From Candidatus Cloacimonadales bacterium (GTDB lineage: Bacteria > Cloacimonadota > Cloacimonadia > Cloacimonadales > JAFGVF01), in NCBI GenBank assembly GCA_963662585.1, contig OY759729.1, forward strand, positions 1,784,234 through 1,848,233: a stretch of 64,000 nucleotides of DNA, read 5' to 3'. The notes beneath the pieces are model-generated. The model was given only the letters and a program-made list of their open reading frames with translations, searched no databases and had not been told where the DNA came from. Position 1 is the first letter of the stretch. Every line of letters starts with the position of its first letter. Below are positions 83-64,000 of this stretch, piece by piece. The translations under genes and the position numbers were made by a program.

Positions 83-632
83 GATTGTTTAACTGTTGAT
101 TTGTTTAATTGTTTAATTGAAAAAGAAGGATACAATATGGGCTATATGTTTTCTTTTGAAAGATTGGAAACATGGCAACTATCTAAAAGATTTGTTATAC
201 AAATATATAAAATTACAGACCAGTTTCCAAATAATGAGAAATTTGGATTAGTATCACAGATAAACAGAGCAGCAGTTTCTGTTCCTTCAAATTTAGCAGA
301 AGGAACTTCTAGAACTTCTTCAAAAGATCAAGCACACTTATCGCAGTTAGCTTTTAGTTCTTTAATGGAAGTTATTTGTCAGCTCAGTATTGCTCATGAG
401 TTAAAGTTTATTAAGCAAGAAGATTATTATAACCTTAGAAAACTAGCTGAAGAAATCTCAAACAAGATTAACTCTTTACGAAACTATCAATTAAACAGTT
501 AGAAACATCAACAGTTCAACATTAAATTAGACAATATGCAGGCAAAGCCAACTAAACTCTAAACAGTTTAACAAAGTGGCTGATTAATAAGCTATCAATT
601 AAACAACTAAACAAATCAACGATTAAACAAGG
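83..632. repeat. Inverted-repeat-bounded cassette 1 (IVS-like) carrying the four-helix-bundle gene
   Basis: Left arm 83-119 (GATTGTTTAACTGTTGATTTGTTTAATTGTTTAATTG). Its reverse complement matches right arm 596-632 at 32/37 positions. The element fills the gap between the upstream stop (72) and the aminotransferase ATG (640). Confidence 0.7.
137..502 (+). CDS. Four-helix-bundle protein (23S rRNA intervening-sequence / S23p family, Avd-like)
   Basis: ORF 101-502. It has FSFERLETWQ and VPSNLAEG motifs typical of this family. The track start at 101 lies inside the left repeat arm; the first ATG outside the arm is 137. Confidence 0.8.
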   Translation: MGYMFSFERLETWQLSKRFVIQIYKITDQFPNNEKFGLVSQINRAAVSVPSNLAEGTSRTSSKDQAHLSQLAFSSLMEVICQLSIAHELKFIKQEDYYNLRKLAEEISNKINSLRNYQLNS

Positions 633-21575: not shown

Positions 21576-22021
21576 GAACTTAAGATTTACCACTAAGTCA
21601 CAAAAGTCACTAAGAAGAAAGAATTTTTTAGCCACGAATGAACACAAATTAACACGAATAATTTAAGACAAGGTGAATAAGAATTTTTACCACAAAGGCA
21701 CAAAAGACACAAATAAAATGAAAAGAAGAATGTTGAATTGTTTAGGTGTTTAAAATTTTCAAAAAAAATAGTTATTGAAATCACCCCCTGTGTCCCCCTT
21801 GAGGCGTCGCACAAGGCTATGGAAGGGGATTTAAGAGATTTATTATGGAAGCAGGGACGCTTCCATTCCATAGGAATCACCCCTTGTGTCCCCCTCATGG
21901 AAGGGGATTTTAAGAGTTTAGGAATTAAGTTCTAGCCACAAATTAACACAAATAAGAAAAAACAATAAGAGTTTTATCAGTCTATTACTTTAAATTAAAG
22001 GATGATATTACAGGTAAAAAT
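21576..22021. repeat. Repeat-filled intergenic block: four left-type CCAC… arms plus an H1-H2-H1 hairpin triad (21779-21910)
   Basis: Arms TTACCACTAAGTCACAAAAGTCAC, TTAGCCACGAATGAACACAAATTAACACGAATAA, TTACCACAAAGGCACAAAAGACACAAATA and CTAGCCACAAATTAACACAAATAAG. Hairpins TGGAAGC-AGGGAC-GCTTCCA and ATCCCC…GGGGAT. Confidence 0.6.
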
Positions 22022-22687: not shown

Positions 22688-22806
22688 GGAATCACCCCTG
22701 TATCCCCCTCATGGAAGGGGATTTTAAGAGTTTTATTATGGAAGCAGGGACGCTTCCATTCCATAGGAATCACCCACTGTGTCCCCCTCGTGGAAGGGGA
22801 TTTTAA
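22688..22806. repeat. H1-H2-H1 hairpin triad (second copy)
   Basis: ATCACCCCTGTATCCCCCTCATGGAAGGGGAT / TGGAAGCAGGGACGCTTCCATTCCATAGG / ATCACCCACTGTGTCCCCCTCGTGGAAGGGGAT. Nearly the same as 21779-21910. Confidence 0.7.
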
Positions 22807-23420: not shown

Positions 23421-23888
23421 AAATTAAAGACGAATTTCACAAATTAAGAGAAAGAAAAGAAAAATCCTTAACACAGAGTTGTACAGAGGTTAAGAGGAGT
23501 TTCACAGAGTTTTGTAGGGTGCAAGTCATTATTCGCCATCTTAAATGAAGTTTTAACCACAAATGAACATTAATAATTAAGACAAAGTGATGGAGTGTCG
23601 GAGAGACAAGGAGAATAAGAGTTTTCACCACTTAGACACAAAGGCACTAAGAAGAGAAAGAATATAAAAGTGAAAAATGAAAAGTTAAAGAAGTTTTAGC
23701 CACGAATGAATACAAATTAAAGACGAATTTCACAAATTAAGAGAAAGAAAAGAAAAATCCTTAACACAGAGTTGTACAGAGGTTAAGAGGAGTTTCACAG
23801 AGTTTTGTAGGGTGCAAGTCATTATTCGCCCTCTTAAATGAAGTTTTAACCACAAATAAACACGAATAATTAAGACAAAGACTAAGTG
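23421..23888. repeat. Direct duplication of a ~175-bp segment (copies at ~23421 and ~23714, offset 293 bp)
   Basis: The first ~145 nt differ at 1 position. Each copy contains a left-type arm TCCTTAACACAGAGTTGTACAGAGGTTAAGAGGAGTTTCACAGAGTTT and a CCACAAAT… arm. Confidence 0.7.
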
Positions 23889-24021
23889 AAGGAGTGACGG
23901 AGAGAATTTTTATTACTAATTTGTTTTCATCATTAGTGGAATGTATTTTTTGTGTCTTAGTGTCTTTGTGGTGATAAATATTCTTGGACTCCCCTCTTAT
24001 GGAAAGGGGATTTATATGAAA

Positions 24022-24064
24022 AGACTGATTAATAGGTAAAAGCCTAATAATCAGTCTTTTTTTT
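24022..24064 (+). terminator. Candidate Rho-independent terminator
   Basis: AGACTGATTAATAGG-TAAAAG-CCTAATAATCAGTCT (one mismatch) followed by T8. It is not obvious which transcript it ends. Confidence 0.5.
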
Positions 24065-24136: not shown

Positions 24137-24277
24137 GCACCCCCTGTGTCCCTCTTGAGGTGTCGCACAAGGCTATGCCCTCACAGGCTATGAGGGGAAT
24201 TTTAAGAGATTTATGGAAGCAGAGACGCTTTCATTCCATAGGAAACACCCCCTGTGTCCCCCTCGTAGAGGGGGATA
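24137..24277. repeat. H1-H2-H1 hairpin triad (third copy)
   Basis: CACCCCCTGTGTCCCTCTTGAGG…, TGGAAGCAGAGACGCTTTCATTCCATAGG, ACACCCCCTGTGTCCCCCTCGTAGAGGGGGAT. Lies directly upstream of the sugar transferase gene. Confidence 0.7.
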
Positions 24278-25913: not shown

Positions 25914-27065
25914 TCCTTAACACAGAGTTACACAGAGGTCACCACAGAGTTTAACGGAGTTTTAAGAGAGTTATTATTAATAAGAATGATAGATTAAAAA
26001 AGTAGCCAAGAATAAAGATGTCATTTGGAACAGAGACTGGATAAGCTTAAAATCAGAGTTGAAGAGAGTAAGAAGAAGATTCTTAATTCCTTTAATTTCT
26101 TGGATGGTGCAGTGTTAATGATGAAATTTAAATTTAGAAAAAGATCTTTACGTTACAGATGTAAAATACTGTGGGAAATCATGTTCTGTTGTATTGTATT
26201 AAACTCTGTGAAACTCCTCTTAAACCTCTGTGTAACTCTGTGTTAAAGGAAAATTATATTAAGTAAAAGGAGGTTGCTGGTATGTATGAAGAATTAACAG
26301 AAAGAATTTTAAACTGTGCTTATAAGGTACATAGTAAGCTTGGTGCTGGTATGTTAGAGTCTGTATATCAAAGATGTTTAAGTTACGAACTAACTAAAAA
26401 TGGTATAAAGAATGAAACAGAAAAAGCAATTCCATTAAAGTATGGAGATATGTTTATTGAAAATGCTTTTAAGATTGATATCTTAGTTGAAAATTGCGTA
26501 ATCTTAGAATTGAAATCTGTTGAAAAGTTTAATGAACTGCATCAATCTCAGATATTGAGTTATATGAAGACAGCTGAGAAAAAAGTAGGCTTGTTGATAA
26601 ATTTTAATGTGGGTAGTTTGAGGAATGGGATTAAAAGATATAGCTTGTAATTCCTTAATGTAGAGTGAAGAGAAGATCCTTAACACAGAGTTACACAGAG
26701 GTCATCACAGAGTTTCGCAGAGTTTAAGAGAGAAAGAAAGAAGATTCTTATTTTTTTTAATTTATTGGATGGAGAAGTGTTAGTGATGAAATATAAATAT
26801 AGAAAAAGATCTTTATGTTAGATTTGTAAAGTACTTTGCGAAATCATGTTTTGTTATATTATATTAATCTCTGTGAAACTCTGTGTTAAGGAAAAATAGT
26901 TTGAAAAGAATATCCTTGATACAAAGTTTGAAGATACTGGTTAATATAGAAAAGTTACCAAAATTTAGAGTTTAATTTATAAAAGTGAAGAAGAGCATAA
27001 TTTATTGTATTATATTAAACTCTGTGAAACTCTGTGGTGACCTCTGTGTAACTCTGTGTTAAGGA
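25914..27065. repeat. Nested inverted-repeat cassette 4 enclosing an intact GxxExxY gene
   Basis: Outer left arm 25914-25962. The reverse complement of 27017-27065 matches it at 47/49. Inner right arm 26201-26250, inner left arm 26677-25 (26677-26725, also 47/49 to the outer right arm), and a truncated right arm near 26866-26892. The ~150-bp cores at ~26085 and ~26745 are diverged copies of each other. Confidence 0.7.
26282..26650 (+). CDS. GxxExxY-family protein (PD-(D/E)XK nuclease-like superfamily)
   Basis: 122 aa. LGAGMLESVYQRCL (GxxExxY), DILVENCVILELKSV and SQILSYMK are typical of the family. RBS AAGGAGG upstream. Confidence 0.8.
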   Translation: MYEELTERILNCAYKVHSKLGAGMLESVYQRCLSYELTKNGIKNETEKAIPLKYGDMFIENAFKIDILVENCVILELKSVEKFNELHQSQILSYMKTAEKKVGLLINFNVGSLRNGIKRYSL

Positions 27066-27094: not shown

Positions 27095-28150
27095 ATGAAG
27101 ATTTTAATAACAGGTACAGCCGGATTTATCGGCTTTCATTTAGCAAACAGGTTGCTCAAAGAGCAAGATGTTGAGATAGTAGGATTAGATGTAATTAATG
27201 ATTATTATGATTTGAGAGTAAAGTATGGTAGATTAGCTGAAGATGGTTTTCCTCTCCAGAACATTCGTTATGGCGAGATTATTCAGAGTGAGAAGCATGC
27301 TAACTACAGATTTATAAAATTAGATTTATGTGATAGAGCTAAACTCTACAAACTTTTTCAAAATGAGGAGTTTGATGTCGTAGTAAATTTGGCTGCACAG
27401 GCTGGAGTCCGCTATAGTATTACCAATCCTGATGCTTATTTAGAGAGTAATATTATTGGTTTCTTTAATATTTTAGAAGCATCGCGTCAGAATAAAATTA
27501 AGCATTTAGTTTATGCTAGTTCTTCTAGTGTTTATGGTTGGAACGACAAGCTTCCTTTCTGTACCACTGATAATGTGGATCATCCTATTTCACTTTATGC
27601 AGCCAGTAAGAAATCTAATGAATTATTAGCTCATTCTTATAGTGCTTTGTATGATATTCCTACAACAGGTCTAAGATTCTTTACAGTCTATGGTCCATGG
27701 GGCAGACCTGATATGGCTCTATTCCTTTTTGCCAAAGCAATTGCTGAAGGAAAGCCGATTGATGTCTTTAATCATGGTAAAATGAAACGCGACTTTACTT
27801 ACATTGATGATATTGTAGAAGGTATAAAACGCGTGATTTATCATCCTGCCCAGCCAATGCCAGGCTGGAGTGGTGAAAATCCTACTCCAGGAGCTTCAAA
27901 AGCACCATATAAGATCTATAACATAGGAAATAACGATACTGTATTGCTAATGGATTTCATCGAAGCTATTGAGGAAGAAATGGGCAAGAAAGCCATTAAG
28001 AATATGTTGCCACTTCAACCAGGGGATGTTCCTGCTTCTCATGCCGATGTTACTGATTTAGTTGAAGATCTAGGTTACAGACCTAATACTCCTATTAGGG
28101 AAGGGGTGAAGAAGTTTATTGAGTGGTACAAGAATTTCTACAGAATTTGA
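27095..28150 (+). CDS. UDP-glucuronate 4-epimerase (CapI/WbnF/LpsL-type NAD-dependent epimerase)
   Basis: 351 aa. ITGTAGFIGFHL, YAASKKSNE (Y-x3-K), FTVYGPWGRPDMA. Confidence 0.8.
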   Translation: MKILITGTAGFIGFHLANRLLKEQDVEIVGLDVINDYYDLRVKYGRLAEDGFPLQNIRYGEIIQSEKHANYRFIKLDLCDRAKLYKLFQNEEFDVVVNLAAQAGVRYSITNPDAYLESNIIGFFNILEASRQNKIKHLVYASSSSVYGWNDKLPFCTTDNVDHPISLYAASKKSNELLAHSYSALYDIPTTGLRFFTVYGPWGRPDMALFLFAKAIAEGKPIDVFNHGKMKRDFTYIDDIVEGIKRVIYHPAQPMPGWSGENPTPGASKAPYKIYNIGNNDTVLLMDFIEAIEEEMGKKAIKNMLPLQPGDVPASHADVTDLVEDLGYRPNTPIREGVKKFIEWYKNFYRI

Positions 28151-28540
28151 CGGAGAGACAAAGAGATGGAGATTTTTTTCGCCTGTGGCTCAAAGACGGG
28201 GAGACGGGGTGATGGAGAGAATGTAGGGGCAAAACATTTTTTGCCCAATGAATGATTAGAGATTCTGAAAAATGGACTTTTTCCAAGTCAGAAGATGGAG
28301 AGACAAAGAGATAGAGAGGGGAATTAAGCCACGAACTAAAGGTCCTTAACCCTATTTATAAAGATATAAAGATAGACAAAGAGAATGGAGCTTTGATTAA
28401 AGGTTTTCATTGAATACAAAGAATTATTAGAATGGAAAACAAGAAGATAATGATTTATGGAAAAGATGGATGTAAGAGTATTTTTCTTTCTCTCTATCAC
28501 TCCCTCTCTCCATCACTTTGTCTTTTTTTCAAGGAAATAT

Positions 28541-28915: not shown

Positions 28916-29446
28916 AAAATTATGGACATAACCCTGTAAGGATTTAATCAAATTTATATAATAAGGTCCTTGCACCTTAAATTTTCCAGTTCTCCGCTAG
29001 AGCGTCGAACCACTAATGGTGGGTTGCTTTGTGCTACCAAGAAACAGCTCCTCTGGAGCTAAAACCAATGAATTAACTCAGAATGATGCTAGCAAGAAAC
29101 CGCTCCGCTGACAGGAACCAAAATTATCTCTTTATGATACCAAGATTGAACCAAGCATATCTCTTCGCTTCGGAGAAGCGGTTTCTTGGTAGTCATGAGT
29201 ACCTATCACGAACACCTTCGCTCCGTAGGTGCGAATTTATTTTAATTAAATAGCATATTATATAATATTTATTAACAAATAATATAAATATATTTTGTTT
29301 GTATACTTTTTTACTAGCAAGGAAAAATAATATCCCTGAAAGGGATTAATAGATTAGCCTGGGGTAAGATCCTATAGGGATCGTCACCCCAGGTGCAATA
29401 TCTAAAATTATGGACATAACCCTGTAAGGGTTTAATCAAATTTATA
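28916..29446. repeat. Segment bracketed by 43-bp direct repeats, containing a hairpin-rich GC-richer core and an AT-rich stretch
   Basis: AAAATTATGGACATAACCCTGTAAGG(A/G)TTTAATCAAATTTATA at 28916-28958 and 29404-29446 (42/43). Inside, ACCAAGAAAC(A/C)GCT occurs three times, one of them inverted. Confidence 0.55.
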
Positions 29447-29463
29447 GAAGGATTAATGAGAAA

Positions 29464-32458
29464 TTTTATAAGGTATTTCGCACGCAAGGGTGCATGCAAT
29501 CCGGCAGAAGAGGTCTTATCATGCTGTAAACTATCATCTTTAGTGATTAACTGGGGTTACGGACCTTTAGTCCGTGAATACATCAGGCTGTATTTCAGTC
29601 TGTTTTATTTAATCCCTTTGGGATTGAATGACACAGGGGGTGTTTTCTTCTATGGAGTGGAAGCGTCTCTGCTTCCACATTAGACAAAAATAAGATAACA
29701 TTAGAATTTTATAAGGTTTTTCGCATGCAAGGGTGCATGCAATCCGGCAGAAGAGGTCTTATCACATTTGTTACCTTTTTAGGATATGTCGCCCTGCTAG
29801 GGCTATATGCTGGTTGTTTCCTCTAGGAGTGTCTTGCGAACACTCCCTGTTATATGTTATCCCTCCGGGATGTAAAAGGCTCGACAAGAATACAGCACAT
29901 TAAACCAGGATTAAAGAGGTCAACATTATTCACCATTCTACCAGCTCCCTCTGCAGCTAAGAAGATTTTGAAGGATTAATGAGAAATTTTATAAGGTATT
30001 TCGCACGCAAGGGTGCATGCAATCTGGCAGAAGAGGTCTTATCATGCTGTAAACTATCATCTTTAGTGATTAACTGGGGTTACGGACCTTTAGTCCGTGA
30101 ATACATCAGGCTGTATTTCAGTCTGTTTTATTTAATCCCTTTGGGATTGAATGACACAGGGGGTGTTTACTTCTATGGAGTGGAAGCGTCTCTGCTTCCA
30201 CATTAGTCAAAAATAAAATAACATTAGAATTTTATAAGGTTTTTCGCATGCAAGGGTGCATGCAATCCGGCAGAAGAGGTCTTATCAAATTTGTTACCTT
30301 TTTAGGATATGTCGCCCTGCTAGGGCTATATGCTGGTTGTTTCTTCTAGGAGTGTCTTGCGAACACTCCCTGTTATATGTTATCCCTCCGGGATGTAAGA
30401 GGTCCCGTATCAAGTATTTATTACAGCACATTAAACCAGGATTAAAGAGGTCAACATTATTCACCAATCTACCAGCTGCCTCTGCAGCTAATAAGATTTT
30501 GAAGGATTAATGAAATATTTTTATAAGGTATTTCGCACGCAAGGGTGCATGCAATCCGGCAGAAGAGGTCTTATCACATTTGTTACCTTTTTAGGATATG
30601 TCGCCCTGCTAGGGCTAAATGCTGGATGTTTCTTCTAGGAGTGTCTTGCGAACACTCCCTGTTATATGTTATCCCTCCGGGATGTAAGAGGTCCCGTATC
30701 AAGTATTTATTACAGCACATTAAACCAGGATTAAAGAGGTCAACATTATTCACCAATCTACCAGCTGCCTCTGCAGCTAAGAAGATTTTGAAGGATTAAT
30801 GAGAAATTTTATAAGGTATTTCGCACGCAAGGGTGCATGCAATCCGGCAGAAGAGTTCTTATCATGCTGTAAACTATCATCTTTAGTGATTAACTGGGGT
30901 TACGGACCTTTAGTCCGTGAATACATCAGGCTGTATTTCAGTCTGTTTTATTTAATCCCTTTGGGATTGAATGACACAGGGGGTGTTTTCTTCTATGGAG
31001 TGGAAGCGTCTCTGCTTCCACATTAGACAAAAATAAGATAACATTAGAATTTTATAAGGTTTTTCGCATGCAAGGGTGCATGCAATCCGGCAGAAGAGTT
31101 CTTATCATATTTGTTACCTTTTTAGGATATGTCGCCCTGCTAGGGCTATATGCTGGTTGTTTCTTCTAGGAGTGTCTTGCGAACACTCCCTGGTATATGT
31201 TATCCCTCCGGGATGTAAGAGGTCCCGTATCAAGTATTTATTACAGCACATTAAACCAGGATTAAAGAGGTCAACATTATTCACCATTCTACCAGCTCCC
31301 TCTGCAGCTAAGAAGATTTTGAAGGATTAATGAGAAATTTTATAAGGTATTTCGCACGTAAGGGTGCATGCAATCTGGCAGAAGAGGTCTTATCATGCTG
31401 TAAACTATCATCTTTAGTGATTAACTGGGGTTACGGACCTTTAGTCCGTGAATACATCAGGCTGTATTTCAGTCTGTTTTATTTAATCCCTTTGGGATTG
31501 AATGACACAGGGGGTGTTTACTTCTATGGAGTGGAAGCGTCTCTGCTTCCACATTAGTCAAAAATAAAATAACATTAGAATTTTATAAGGTTTTTCGCAT
31601 GCAAGGGTGCATGCAATCCGGCAGAAGAGGTCTTATCAAATTTGTTACCTTTTTAGGATATGTCGCCCTGCTAGGGCTATATGCTGGTTGTTTCTTCTAG
31701 GAGTGTCTTGCGAACACTCCCTGTTATATGTTATCCCTCCGGGATGTAAGAGGTCCCGTATCAAGTATTTATTACAGCACATTAAACCAGGATTAAAGAG
31801 GTCAACATTATTCACCATTCTACCAGCTCCCTCTGCAGCTAAGAAGATTTTGAAGGATTAATGAGATATTTTATAAGGTATTTCGCACGCAAGGGTGCAT
31901 GCAATCCGGCAGAAGAGGTCTTATGATGCTGTAAACTATCATCTTTAGTGATTAACTGGGGTTACGGACCTTTAGTCCGTGAATACATCAGGCTGTATTT
32001 CAGTCTGTTTTATTTAATCCCTTTGGGATTGAATGACACAGGGTGTGTTTTCTTCTATGGAGTGGAAGCGTCTCTGCTTCCACATTAGACAAAAATAAGA
32101 TAACATTAGAATTTTATAAGGTTTTTCGCATGCAAGGGTGCATGCAATCCGGCAGAAGAGGTCTTATCACATTTGTTACCTTTTTAGGATATGTCGCCCT
32201 GCCAGGGCTATATTCTGGTTGTTTCTTCTAGGAGTGTCTTGTGAACACTCCCTGTTATATGTTATCCCTCCGGGATGTAAGAGGTCCCGTATCAAGTATT
32301 TATTACAGCACATTAAACCAGGATTAAAGAGGTCAACATTATTCACCATTCTACCAGCTCCCTCTGCAGCTAAGAAGATTTTGAAGGATTAATGAAATAT
32401 TTTTATAAGGTATTTCGCACGCAAGGGTGCATGCAATCTGGCAGAAGAGGTCTTATCA
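29464..32458. repeat. Composite tandem array: 12 copies of a 58-bp hairpin repeat (J) alternating with two body types (A 185 bp, B 222-231 bp)
   Basis: J starts at 29464, 29707, 29987, 30230, 30519, 30807, 31050, 31338, 31581, 31869, 32112 and 32401. Periods are 243 (A) and 280-289 (B). Order: A B A' B B A B A' B A B. Confidence 0.9.
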
Positions 32459-53843: not shown

Positions 53844-53862
53844 AAAGCAAATTTATAATTTA

Positions 53863-53927
53863 GAATGGAGAATGGAGAATGGAGAATTGAGAGACAGAGA
53901 GACAGAGAGACAAAGAGACAGAGAGAA
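53863..53927. repeat. Microsatellite block: (GAATGGA)3-GAATTGA then (GAGAGA/GAGACA) hexamers
   Basis: Read directly from the sequence. Starts 20 nt after the response-regulator stop. Confidence 0.85.
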
Positions 53928-54320
53928 GAAAAATCTACCAATAATTTCACGAATTAAGAAAATATCCTGAAGGGATTAAATAGATTAGCCCAGGGTCTCA
54001 TTTTTTGAAGAAAAATTGACCCTGGGTATGGTACACCAATATTTATTTAACCCTGTCTTGTGAAGGCGAAGCATTAGCGTAGACTCAAAGGGTTTAATAG
54101 AGAAAATAATAATTACTAAAAAATCGGTCAAATTATTTAGGACTGAACATTCACACGAATTAACGCGAATGTAGGGGCCAATTGCCATACGCCTTCTTGA
54201 AAAGTTCCCTAACACAAAGTTTTTAAGAAAAGTTTTGAGAATGTGATAAGATCTCTTCAGCCGGATTGCATGCACCCTTGCATGCGAAAAACCTTATAAA
54301 AATCTAATGTTATCTTATTA

Positions 54321-55973
54321 CTAATCTTTCCGACACCTAAGTTATTGCAAATAAACTACTAATTTGCACATCATAGCGACTCATATGTCTTTTTATCAGT
54401 TAATTATGCAATTCTGCCATTATACCGAATATCTACCTCTGTGATTTTATCTATAATTTCTTCATTTTCAAAGAATTTTCTTATCATGATATCAACATCC
54501 TTTCTTAACTCAGTTAAATTTGTGTATCCATAAGCTATTGAATAATCGATGAAGTCTTTTACTTTTTGAGTAAAAATCGTATTAATAAATATGATTAATG
54601 ATGCATCTTCAAGCTCTTCATAAAATTCAATTAATAACTGTTCCATAGAAGGATATGGTTTTTGCTGTTTTTTGTAACATAGTATGTTATAAAAAACATA
54701 CCTAATAGTCAAATCAGCTATCATAGCAGAGTATTTTGAAGAATGGCTCTGATTATATCCAAAATATTGTTTAATCTCTTTAAATACACATTCTATTGAC
54801 CATCTTCTCATATAAATTTTTAAAACTTCTATTTCTGAAAGTTGTAAATCAGTTGCTAAAATAGCCTTCCATCTTTTAACATTAGGGTACTTAAAAAAGC
54901 ATATTTTAATCTTTTCTATTACTTTTCTTTCATTTATTTTTCTTGAACTTGAAGTATCTAATAATTCAACAATAACAGATTTATATTTTATTCCGGATTT
55001 CCTATCATAAAACCATTTACCAGCTATTTTGTTTAGGGTTTTCAAATCATAATATTGACCTTTAAACTTATATTTCTGGGAACCATTTTTTAACATAGAC
55101 ACTAGTGTTATTCCAAGTGGTACAAGTCTTTTAAATACAAAGTTATAACTTGTGTTGTTATTGAACCAAGAATCCCATAATACATATTTAAAAGGTATTT
55201 TTCTCTGAATAGTGCGTTTTATCATTTTAATTACAATTTGAGTCTTCTTTTCTTTTGAGAAACGATTTCTTTGCTCAGTATGAGTGCCTTTGTGGTATCT
55301 GGGTCTTTTTGACTTTTTGACTTTTTTCTTTCCAATTTTTAATTCAAAATCTAATACAATAGCTGATAACCCATTACTCCACACTTCAGTTATGTTTTGA
55401 AACCCTTTGAAGTATTTTGATAAACAGTGATCATGAAACCAACTGATATATTCTGTCTTTTTCCCTGTTTTTACTTTCGATGTATCATCAAAAATTATAC
55501 AATTATCATTTTCACAGGAAGTATCACTTAGCTTAATAAACCTTAAAGCAACTTTATATAATAGATTTCTCCATTTATAATTAGAGTTGTTTAGCATATC
55601 ATTAATGGGTGTTTTAAATTTTGATATATTATTGAATTTTAGACCAAAATATAAGGATTTTTTATTCTCAAGAATCATGAACATAAAAAGAAGCATCAAT
55701 TCAATGATGGTATGACCTTTTTGTTTTACTATACCAACTTGCTTCAAAATACTTCCAAATTTAAATATTTCAAATAACTCTATTATTAATCCTGAATTCA
55801 AGCTTGACACTTTTACCTGTTTGTATTTTTTTAGCATATATACCTCGTTTTTTATAGTTTCGTTTATTTCCGTAAACAACTAAACTATAATCATATACGA
55901 GGTATTTTTGTCAATATCTATTTTTATCTATTTTATTGTTACACAACAACTTAATTCATGTCGGAAAGATTAG
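54321..55973 (-). mobile_element. IS4-family insertion sequence (1653 bp)
   Basis: 15-bp perfect terminal inverted repeats CTAATCTTTCCGACA. 6-bp direct duplication TTATTA (54315-54320 / 55974-55979). An uninterrupted paralogous site occurs at ~56451-56470. Confidence 0.8.
54404..55879 (-). CDS. IS4-family DDE transposase
   Basis: 491 aa. D (IIFDDTS), D (VLWDSWF) and an exact Y-x2-R-x3-E-x6-K signature (YMRRWSIECVFKEIK). Confidence 0.8.
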   Translation of the reverse strand: MFTEINETIKNEVYMLKKYKQVKVSSLNSGLIIELFEIFKFGSILKQVGIVKQKGHTIIELMLLFMFMILENKKSLYFGLKFNNISKFKTPINDMLNNSNYKWRNLLYKVALRFIKLSDTSCENDNCIIFDDTSKVKTGKKTEYISWFHDHCLSKYFKGFQNITEVWSNGLSAIVLDFELKIGKKKVKKSKRPRYHKGTHTEQRNRFSKEKKTQIVIKMIKRTIQRKIPFKYVLWDSWFNNNTSYNFVFKRLVPLGITLVSMLKNGSQKYKFKGQYYDLKTLNKIAGKWFYDRKSGIKYKSVIVELLDTSSSRKINERKVIEKIKICFFKYPNVKRWKAILATDLQLSEIEVLKIYMRRWSIECVFKEIKQYFGYNQSHSSKYSAMIADLTIRYVFYNILCYKKQQKPYPSMEQLLIEFYEELEDASLIIFINTIFTQKVKDFIDYSIAYGYTNLTELRKDVDIMIRKFFENEEIIDKITEVDIRYNGRIA

Positions 55974-57110
55974 TTATTATTGTCTTATGTGGAAGCAGAG
56001 ACGCTTCCACTCCATAGAAGAAAACACCCCCTGTGTCCCCCTCACGGAGGGGGATTTAAGATTCACGGACTAAAGGTCCGTAACCGTAACCCCAGTTCTT
56101 CAATCCCAAAGGGATTAAATAGATTAGCCCAGGGTCTCATTTTTTGAAGAAAAATTGACCCTGGGTATGGTACACCAATATTTGTGTAACCCTGTCTTGT
56201 GAAGGCGAAGCATTAGCGTAGACTCAAAGGGTTTAATAGAGAAAATAATAATTACTAAAAAATCGGTCAAATTATTTAGGACTGAACATTCACACGAATT
56301 AACGCGAATGTAGGGGCCTATTGCCATACGCCTTCTTGAAAAGTTCCCTAACACAAAGTTTTTAAGAAAAGTTTTGAGAATGTGATAAGATCTCTTCTGC
56401 CGGATTGCATGCACCCTTGCATGCGAAAAACCTTATAAAAATCTAATGTTATCTTATTATTGTCTTATGTGGAAGCAGAGACGCTTCCACTCCATAGAAG
56501 AAAACACCCCCTGTGTCCCCCTCACGGAGGGGGATTTAAGATTCACGGACTAAAGGTCCGTAACCCCAGTTAATCACTAAAGATGATAGTTTACAGCATG
56601 ATAATCCCTCTTCTGCCGGATTGCATGCACCCTTGCATGCGAAAAACCTTATAAAAATCTAATGTTATCTTATTATTGTCTTATGTGGAAGCAGAGAGGC
56701 TTCCACTCCATAGAAGAAAACACCCCCTGTGTCCCCCTCACGGAGGGGGATTTGAGATTCACGGACTAAAGGTCCGTAACCCCAGTTCTTCAATCCCAAA
56801 GGGATTAAATAGATTAGCCCTGGGTCTCATTTTTTGAAGAAAAATTGACCCTGGGTATGGTACACCAATATTCGTGTAACCCTGTAAGGTTTTATCACAC
56901 TCTTGAAATTCTCTCCATTTCCCTTGCTCTGTGACTGTCATCTCAAATATTATTTGAATTTTATTCGTAATATCATTAATGGAGCATTAAGAGACTAAGA
57001 GAAAAGGAAAGAAAAAGCAGAATTGTAGAAAAGGATAAAAGCTATAATATCAACAATTTACGAATCTAAAATCTAAAGTAAAAGATAATAATATAAAAAA
57101 GATATTGACA

Positions 57111-63686: not shown

Positions 63687-63690
63687 TTTA

Positions 63691-63725
63691 GAATTGAGAA
63701 TTGAGAATTGAGAATTGAGAATTGA
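63691..63725. repeat. Perfect heptamer microsatellite (GAATTGA)x5
   Basis: Read directly from the sequence. Begins 5 nt after the lepA stop. Confidence 0.9.
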
Positions 63726-63784: not shown

Positions 63785-64000
63785 ATGGATTCGCCCGAAT
63801 GTAGGGGCGTATTGCCATACGCCCTTTTAATCAAAAAAGAGGTAATTATCACTAAAAACTGGAAATTATTTAAGATATTCTTTAAGATTGGAGCCTTCAC
63901 TATTGGAGGTGGCTATGCAATGCTACATTTAATTGAGTATGAATTGGTGGAAAAAGAGAAATTATTAGATTATGATACTTTTCATGATGGTCTTGCTCTT
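63785..64000 (+). CDS. 5' part of a chromate-transporter (CHR) family protein, runs off the right edge
   Basis: Open frame to the window end encoding …FFKIGAFTIGGGYAMLHLIEYELVEKEKLL, the CHR-family FGGGxAM motif. The start is uncertain (ATG 63785 inside a repeat module, or TTG 63812). Confidence 0.45.
   Translation, partial: MDSPECRGVLPYALLIKKEVIITKNWKLFKIFFKIGAFTIGGGYAMLHLIEYELVEKEKLLDYDTFHDGLAL

Follow-up and report, generated by a model that had tools for sequence, protein, structure and literature searches.

Oriented hairpin modules shared by dispersed triads and tandem arrays form a mosaic family of intergenic repeats in Cloacimonadota

The intergenic DNA of a 64,000-nucleotide stretch from a Candidatus Cloacimonadales bacterium (contig OY759729.1, positions 1,784,234 to 1,848,233; hereafter the window) carries short stem-loop modules, two of which, H1 and H2, recur both in dispersed triads within a polysaccharide-synthesis locus and as components of large repeat arrays. 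These modules are non-coding, modular and recurrent at unlinked loci and in phage-like contigs. Membership in the families that these repeats most resemble (NIME, REP, BIME and BOX) fails in each case on at least one tested defining feature, and the modules therefore represent a new family of intergenic mosaic hairpin repeats, which we judge to be analogous to REP/BIME and NIME repeats and a member of neither. No description of intergenic mosaic hairpin repeats in Cloacimonas or Cloacimonadota was found in the literature. An earlier note on this DNA had proposed that dispersed triads and arrays are made of the same modules, and that these constitute a REP/BIME-like but distinct modular family. 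The first proposal is upheld. The modular and distinct nature of the family also stands, whereas REP/BIME serves as an analogy only, membership in that group being unsupported.

An H1 module consists of a 12-nt box and an 8-bp stem with a 3-nt loop, laid out as GAA(A/T)-CACCCCCTGTGT, the hairpin TCCCCCTC-NNN-GA(G/A)GGGGA and then T(T)(T)AAGA. When 16 copies from several genomes and contigs are aligned, the stem and box are almost invariant, the loop adopts nine different sequences, and one C-G pair of the stem is changed to C-A in six copies. The H2 module has an 8-bp stem, a 6-nt purine-rich loop and the 7-nt tail TCCATAG. Its stem differs between the triad type and the array type by one G-C to A-T double change, and one G-U pair is also seen. 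Conserved stems with variable loops, as the earlier note described them, are thus confirmed for H1 by the alignment of copies but not for H2, whose loop hardly varies. The sequence GTCTCT, which had been listed as a further H2 loop variant, is the reverse complement of AGAGAC, and consequently the H2 loop is seen to vary little. A third component, J, is a 60-nt element in which the hairpin GCATGCA-AGGG-TGCATGC is followed by AATCCGGCAGAAGAGGTCTTATCA and which has a TCCGRCAGAAGAGG tail. A second J type, J2 (GGCGGAGAgaaTCTCCACC-GTCCGACAGAAGAGG...), occurs in a conspecific genome and in a phage.

Reading of the sequence recovered the H1-H2-H1 triad at all three sites of the glycan locus where it had been reported, each on the plus strand. 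Triad 1 (21780-21908) comprises a long-loop H1 at 21780-21830, H2 at 21846-21874 and H1 at 21876-21908. Triad 2 (22691-22801) comprises H1 at 22691-22722, H2 at 22739-22767 and H1 at 22769-22801, and triad 3 (24137-24276) comprises a long-loop H1 at 24137-24200, an H2 with a G-T wobble at 24214-24242 and H1 at 24243-24276. In triads 1 and 3, the loop of the first H1 carries a conserved expansion of 20-35 nt, and a like form is present in a viral contig. The triads are 83-87% identical to one another when aligned with their linkers included, and this conservation of the linkers indicates that the triad itself is one composite unit of approximately 115-140 nt. Their GC content is 49-53%, versus 32% for the window. 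Triad 3 ends 26 nt before the likely ATG of a Bac_transf gene, and a solitary H1-type hairpin (TCCCCTCttatggaaAGGGGA) without the box lies at 23990-24010 (plus strand).

The same modules are assembled into two larger loci. Array 1 (29462-32458, plus strand) contains 12 copies of the 60-nt J element that bound five A cassettes (period 243) and six B cassettes (period 280-289). On the minus strand, each A cassette reads H2, then the H1 box, H4 and H3, with H2 at 29649-29677, 30172-30200, 30992-31020, 31523-31551 and 32054-32082. Accordingly, the reverse complement of H2 together with part of H1, which had been predicted for the array body, is found in all five A cassettes (for example at 29636-29677), the H1 part being the box (ACACAGGGGGTG). 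What had been called a half H1 does contain this box, but it is not a truncation: the box is joined to a different small hairpin, H4 (AATCCCaaaGGGATT), which makes the unit a variant module. The claim that the modules extend to a second locus likewise proved correct, as H2 with a full H1 is present there at 55990-56055, 56470-56535 and 56686-56751. The left part of locus 2 (53970-54320, plus strand) holds cassette C, composed of H4, H5, a K-type motif and a GTAG palindrome, and a J copy on the minus strand (54244-54303). The right part (55975-56885, plus strand) holds three H2-H1-H3 units, plus cassette C, with H2 at 55990-56018, 56470-56498 and 56686-56714, H1 at 56025-56055, 56505-56535 and 56721-56751, and J on the minus strand at 56383-56442 and 56599-56658. 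Cassettes C and A' of this locus run in the opposite orientation to array 1.

Each cassette is a string of small GC-rich hairpins set within an AT-rich matrix, and in no triad, cassette or array do its H1, H2 and H3 copies differ in orientation. The order of modules is not fixed: H1-H2-H1 occurs in the window, H2-H1-H3 at locus 2 and H2-box-H4 in the A cassettes of the array, and other loci show H2-H1-H1 and H2-box-other (L013), three H3 copies in tandem (L017) and H1 hairpins standing alone (L014, and position 23990 of the window). The H2-H1-H3 unit is predicted to fold far better as RNA than shuffled sequences (z = -4.8). Also embedded in the mosaics is a different, classic REP-like module, the GTAG-tagged palindrome GTAGGGGC-N12-GCC, which has four copies in the window (28223-28245 on the plus strand, 54171-54193, 56310-56332 and 63801-63823) versus 0.07 expected. 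Its copies in cassette C adjoin CACGAAT-type motifs.

Chance does not account for the number of copies. The H2 pattern TGGAAGC-N6-GCTTCCAyTCCATAG is matched ten times in the window at three or fewer mismatches and not once in 100 shuffles, with an eleventh copy at four mismatches, and the H1 core CACCCCCTGTGTCCCCCT occurs eight times versus 0 expected. The local copy number in 64 kb amounts to 11 H2 and nine full H1 modules, all of which lie outside open reading frames (ORFs) that have family matches. A query with the concatenated translations of the modules yielded zero matches among 5.8 billion protein clusters.

In keeping with the earlier note, copies also exist beyond the window, in a conspecific genome, in a further metagenome and in contigs that are phage-like or viral. 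The conspecific genome is a 3.12-Mb contig (ENA ERZ25042269, ctg13228c) that carries a member of the 90%-identity protein cluster to which the RNase II of the window belongs. The RNase II of the window itself matches a protein on a 3.30-Mb contig at 100% identity. Its loci were sampled via P0032, the LMWPc protein and copies of an insertion sequence (IS), and those designated L004, L012 and L016 show colinearity with the window and a DNA identity of 91-99%. The more distant relatives are metagenome-assembled genomes (MAGs) of Candidatus Cloacimonadales/Cloacimonadota. Triads 2 and 3 occupy syntenic positions within the conspecific genome. Further modules came from four unlinked 21-kb conspecific loci sampled around IS copies (at 2.27, 1.73, 1.50 and 3.01 Mb): L013 carries H2-H1-H1 and also H2 beside J units, L014 a solitary H1 hairpin, L015 H4, H5 and the GTAG palindrome, and L017 the H3 tandem and a J2 element.

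An exact-pattern scan of 185,579 GTDB representative genomes detected H2 as single copies in two other Cloacimonadota MAGs and nowhere else, and pattern scans found no H2 in JGI metagenomes or in IMG/VR. Taken together, these scans reveal a narrow distribution for H2. H1 is present in three contigs of one JGI metagenome (L005-L007) and in viral contigs such as L008. Genes for a replication initiator, a minor head protein, an endolysin, a head protease and a tape measure protein mark L006, L007 and L008 as phage-like. The H1 of L006 is identical to an H1 of locus 2 at 35 of 35 positions, loop included, and its flanks are unrelated. GenBank phages and PLSDB plasmids gave no match to the modules. 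The family is therefore real and dispersed, and it is phylogenetically narrow. The L006 copy (326-360, minus strand) has a further peculiarity in that it lies within an uninterrupted frame of 162 codons (487-1) encoding ETPPVSPSRRGI. The C-terminal part of this frame matches phage minor head proteins, with the profile matches beginning after H1, and the copy may be an in-frame insertion like the Rickettsia palindromic elements.

What the arrays and intergenic slots contain differs from one close relative to another. Array 1 spans 3 kb in the window with its five A and six B cassettes, versus approximately 0.65 kb with about two B cassettes and no A in L004, where a J2 element and an additional hairpin inserted into a B hairpin are also found. 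Between the VanZ gene and array 1, a hairpin-rich non-coding unit of approximately 530 bp (28916-29449) is single in the window and duplicated in tandem in L004. At locus 2, the three H2-H1-H3 units of the window compare with one in L012. Triad 2 differs between the strains by 11 substitutions (9.6%) plus indels, as compared with 0-2.8% substitutions in flanking non-coding DNA and 4-5% in neighbouring ORFs (versus L004). None of the 11 touches a hairpin arm or H2; they fall within the loops of H1, the box and spacer, or the linker. Among phages, L009 (3220-3350) and L010 (3245-3345) have an upstream protein with 82% amino acid identity and completely different intergenic modules. The borders of this slot, a stop codon and a GGAGG Shine-Dalgarno sequence, are the same in both, and the content is H1 plus a long-loop H1 in one phage and an H1-like hairpin plus a J2-type element in the other.

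Colinearity with the conspecific genome stops just left of 21937, in the clutter of triad 1 (21593-21937 versus the reverse complement of L004 1100-1181). The glycan-synthesis genes to the left of triad 1 differ between the strains, which places the repeats at the edge of a strain-variable gene block. In nine of the ten contexts in which the neighbouring genes both point one way, the modules are co-oriented with them, and the remaining arrays sit between convergent genes. In phage contigs, the modules take up the interval that begins at a stop codon and closes 15-26 nt ahead of the next start.

Searches against catalogued repeats and RNAs (Rfam, GenBank phages, PLSDB plasmids and the literature) identified no named repeat family and no known mobilising transposase for the modules, which agrees with the earlier note. 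Rfam gave no match at the gathering threshold across the whole window. Two sub-threshold matches on the minus strand, H5 plus H4 (56102-56134) to Acido-Lenti-1 (21.4 bits versus a gathering score of 37) and H4 (56099-56122) to CRISPR-DR17 (18.6 bits versus 42), count as no membership. With respect to MITEs, the modules have no terminal inverted repeats beyond the hairpin arms and no likeness to the ends of the resident IS (CTAATCTTTCCGAC), and no empty site was available for comparison.

REP elements are extragenic imperfect palindromes of 20-40 nt with a GT(A/G)G (or CGTC) head, present in more than 100 copies per genome and served by a rayt gene located between two inverted repeat copies; their alternating arrangements are called BIMEs and their inverted pairs REPINs (PMC2817692, from which these defining features are taken). 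H1 and H2 fit the palindrome size and the extragenic location. If either or both were true REPs, their single-stranded DNA hairpins would be spread by a Y1 (IS200/IS605-like) transposase encoded elsewhere in the 3.3-Mb genome. This explanation, which we consider unlikely, draws on the combination of a hairpin with a conserved non-palindromic box, on the clustering of extragenic copies into mosaics and on the classic GTAG palindromes in those mosaics, which hint at a possible RAYT in another part of the genome. However, neither consensus has a GT(A/G)G or CGTC head outside the stem, and the composites are all direct, with no alternating or inverted-pair arrangement. Neither a Y1_Tnp nor a RAYT domain turned up in the scanned ORFs of the window (every ORF of 100 aa or more within 20895-60979, and 10 of those upstream) or in the Pfam annotations precomputed for the conspecific loci that were sampled, and the presence of modules in phages would be atypical for RAYT systems, which are vertically inherited. 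A somewhat less probable idea is that the modules mark and promote exchange of variable (glycan) loci and phage modules, with J as the crossover site of the arrays. This would account for J-bounded cassettes whose number and type vary between strains at syntenic sites, as in NIMEs (PMC1797815), for the break in conspecific synteny at triad 1, where the glycan genes differ, for the variable base directly 3' of J and for the J2-type module and H1 in phages; oriented hairpin repeats have, moreover, been described as nuclease targets (PMC11893778). The NIME trait of strain-variable repeat number at syntenic positions is indeed displayed by array 1 and locus 2 (versus L004 and L012). Yet the dRS3 sequence (ATTCCC-N8-GGGAAT) that bounds the RS units of NIMEs (PMC1797815) had 0 matches. 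The SRM pattern (HGTCWY..YYVSBRH..WNVSBRG..RNCYNB), copies of which flank the gene for a small GIY-YIG protein (cd10448) (PMC11893778), likewise had 0 matches in the window and six conspecific loci. Membership in the Ssn/SRM and dRS3 groups was thus rejected, since neither motif is present in the sequence scanned. A GIY..YIG scan of the six-frame translations of all sequence analysed, which is a motif and not a profile search, yielded no candidate ORF, no recombinase was seen beyond an unrelated DDE IS, and a 60-nt J suits ordinary homologous recombination with no need for a dedicated enzyme. We regard as quite improbable, too, a broader proposal in which H1, H2, H3, H4 and the J types would be substrates of an unrecognised hairpin-targeting system of host and phages that is neither RAYT nor Ssn and that inserts, exchanges and amplifies short structured cassettes at gene boundaries. 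Such a system would shuffle intercistronic signals and variable glycan and phage modules in a non-coding, integron-like or NIME-like manner, and it might be akin to CRISPR repeats in view of the likeness of H1 to type I-E repeats and of H4 to CRISPR-DR17.

Transcript-based functions were weighed as well. The hairpins could be terminators, attenuators or RNA-processing signals that were selected independently at each site, their likeness reflecting a preferred terminator sequence; the intergenic and intercistronic, gene-co-oriented placement and the ATTTTAAG that follows H1 in the triads would suit such a role, which we nevertheless find highly doubtful. The canonical terminators of this genome have long T runs (e.g. 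23345 and ~24027-24060), and a terminator scan flags these and other array hairpins but not H1 or H2, for which reason termination was set aside as the principal explanation. The sequence 3' of H1 varies from copy to copy, many copies being followed by TAAACC, TAAGAA or CGAATA with no T tract. Nor would independent selection be expected to yield copies that agree at 35 of 35 positions, including the loop, in contexts that are unrelated, or to yield tandem arrays of 5-12 units. Finally, the modules might have spread in host and phage as CRISPR-repeat-like hairpins, being either solitary repeat units or sites that serve a Cas6-type endoribonuclease as decoys or for processing. Besides the weak CRISPR-DR17 match of H4 and the occurrence of modules in phage intergenic regions, this notion has a lead, as opposed to a result, in the 29-nt H1 form GTGTCCCCCTCGCTGAGGGGGATAAACCA, which is presumably identical at 20-21 of 29 positions, ungapped, to the Escherichia coli type I-E repeat. 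It is very improbable nonetheless: H1 has no CRISPR-DR match even at E = 10, no H1 hairpin pairs 20-50 nt apart occur in IMG/VR, neither the scanned ORFs nor the gene lists of the sampled loci contain a cas domain, and an ATAAACC-like tail is present in few copies. Moreover, the cassettes that would be the 'spacers' between J copies are themselves repeated, unlike CRISPR spacers.

The explanation that we favour, and to which we assign about an even chance, is that H1 and H2 belong to a lineage-restricted superfamily of oriented GC-rich stem-loops that are shuffled by recombination, dispersed by some route and kept as RNA hairpins. A module consists of a hairpin with an almost invariant stem and a conserved single-stranded box or tail. 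Such modules are located in the intergenic DNA of an AT-rich Cloacimonadota species, with H1 types also residing in phage-like and viral contigs of similar GC content, and AT-rich linkers join them in varying orders to create the triad and the J-bounded cassettes A, A', B and C. Cassettes probably expand, contract and swap via homologous recombination or slippage between J and module repeats; because a 60-nt J is long enough for ordinary homologous recombination, no dedicated enzyme would be required for cassette change. For single modules, the way to new intergenic sites could be copy-and-paste or recombinational. Once in place, they may be co-transcribed with the upstream gene and act as, or be tolerated as, intercistronic or 3'-end RNA hairpins in the manner of REP elements, for which this status has been shown in enterobacteria. 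The co-orientation with genes, the stop-to-start placement and the convergent sites are consistent with transcribed RNA-hairpin elements. In addition, the invariance of stem and box next to diverged loops argues for sequence-specific recognition and not merely recent copying, and a host factor that recognizes both parts would explain it.

Several results weigh against this explanation. A covariation test on the 16 H1 copies revealed no compensatory change, and the compensatory pair in the H2 stem is non-significant, as 84 of 500 shuffles reach the same, so that the proposed structure rests on conservation. The two single-base stem variants favour opposite strands: the H2 variant of triad 3 is a G-U pair on the plus strand, whereas the plus strand of many H1 copies has C-A, which reads G-T on the minus strand. 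The triads fold just marginally better than shuffled sequences (z = -1.0 to -2.9), and the H1 of L005 is antisense to both neighbouring genes. No clean empty site or target duplication was captured for an H1 or H2 insertion, and copy-and-paste mobility is accordingly deduced from dispersal only. With regard to distribution, the conspecific sampling was biased towards IS neighbourhoods, and no modules were found in a relative with 79% amino acid identity (L003, 22 kb) or in another species (L020, 21 kb).

Comparison with established repeat systems helps to define how this lineage-restricted superfamily might be placed. The REP/BIME systems with RAYT are known from Enterobacteria, Pseudomonas and Stenotrophomonas (PMC2817692). 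They share with the present family short extragenic imperfect palindromes with a conserved non-palindromic part, grouping into mosaic clusters, a frequent location at 3' ends or between cistrons, and GC-rich hairpins able to form in RNA or single-stranded DNA. Differences are the lack of a GT(A/G)G head in H1 and H2, their same orientation, the absence of a RAYT from the sequence sampled, the mixing of several unrelated hairpin types, the presence in phages and a host of another phylum. NIMEs resemble the arrays in that a short inverted-repeat element (here J) bounds families of 50-300-bp repeat units, and in their syntenic arrays of strain-dependent number and length, opportunistic IS, nearby variable surface or glycan genes and phage link (PMC1797815); hairpins oriented by non-palindromic flanks are shared with NTS/SsnA (PMC11893778). 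In contrast, J is 60 nt long versus 20, the cassettes are themselves built of further hairpin modules, the dRS3 and SRM motifs are absent, and no GIY-YIG or phage transposase partner was seen. By analogy, the arrays are nearest in architecture to the Neisseria NIMEs, more so than to BIMEs, without being a member of that family. The single modules are of a kind most like REPs, and the triads compare best with BIME or BOX composites.

BOX elements of Streptococcus pneumoniae follow the fixed grammar boxA-boxB(n)-boxC, have complementary ends and possess no transposase of their own. Like the present repeats, they are modular, non-coding and intergenic, vary in sub-module number and form stable hairpins; however, there is no sequence similarity, and here many module types are arranged in many orders and in long tandem arrays. 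In T4-type phages, the 'mobile regulatory cassettes' called PeSL are stem-loops that recur between genes on either side of small ORFs and that coincide with modular shuffling, and Rickettsia palindromic elements (RPE) may be tolerated in-frame inside genes. Repeated intergenic stem-loops and modular phage shuffling are common to PeSL and our modules, for which no promoter component is shown, and the H1 of L006 may sit in-frame as an RPE does. Unlike either group, the modules described here are common to a host chromosome and phages.

The only transposase in the window belongs to an IS at 54321-55973 (minus strand), which is inserted in a J-to-H2 linker of locus 2 with the target duplication TTATTA. 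This IS is 1653 bp long, encodes a 477-aa DDE_5 transposase, has the inverted repeats CTAATCTTTCCGAC and generates a 6-bp AT-rich target duplication. Other copies were found in L012-L017 and L020, 10001-11434. The insertion sites differ between the two conspecific genomes, and a transposase copy at least 90% identical is present in a species whose RNase II is just 68% identical. Targeting of the modules by this IS was considered and rejected: the AT-rich 6-bp target duplications of six copies are not related to one another, and only two of the six lie in (J) arrays. The lack of relatedness among the duplications implies that the IS is an opportunistic insertion and neither a mobiliser nor a part of the repeat family.

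Comparable repeats are well studied in Proteobacteria (REP/BIME with RAYT, and NIME/NTS with Ssn) and in pneumococci (BOX), and Cloacimonadota is an uncultivated phylum that is important in anaerobic digesters. The combination of traits seen here is unusual in that hairpin types are interchangeable, stems are sequence-invariant with free loops, whole slots are replaced between related phages, and arrays change between conspecifics beside a strain-variable glycan locus. The use of the same modules in a host chromosome and in phage-like contigs is itself an unusual property. Should a dedicated enzyme or RNA-binding factor serve the modules, it would represent a new hairpin-recognition system; if there is no such factor, the family would be a clear example of recombination alone building repeat mosaics. 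A practical effect is that short-read assemblies are broken by the repeats and that MAGs of this group acquire spurious ORFs from them.

The GC content of the window ranges from 28 to 40%, and its polysaccharide-synthesis locus (~0.6-28 kb; DegT, GT1, epimerases, UDP-GlcNAc 2-epimerase and Bac_transf) has housekeeping genes to its right. Several additional features accompany the repeats. Although the B cassettes are near-identical in other respects, the base directly 3' of J (TCTTATCA|N) may be C, A or T in them (first post-J bases at, for example, 29765, 30288, 30577, 31108 and 32459), and at the junction of array and flank it is T in the window and C in L004. Crossover or joining could take place at this position, or it could be a hot spot of mutation. 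At 28252, the window has a 391-bp deletion relative to the conspecific genome (reverse complement of L004 7155-7545) that takes out a 23S_rRNA_IVP (four-helix-bundle, Avd-like) gene, of which the 3' end alone remains. A 293-bp tandem duplication of intergenic clutter (23485-23777), with CACAAAT, CACAGAG and GTAGGGTGC motifs, is not in the conspecific genome.

MITE-like elements of a family different from H1/H2 are located at 25914-26246 and 26677-27065, where they bracket a PD-(D/E)XK gene (PDDEXK_3, GxxExxY-type; 26282-26650). Their terminal inverted repeats of approximately 50 nt contain TCCTTAACACAGAGTTACACAGAGGTCAyCACAGAGTTT, a motif that is also found at 1724-1772 of the phage-like contig L007. 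Heptamer-like low-complexity runs (GAGAATG, GAGAGAC, GAGAATT) lie beside the repeat loci at 53862-53926, 63690-63725 and 28150-28310, and the same motifs occur at 567-603 of the phage-like contig L006.

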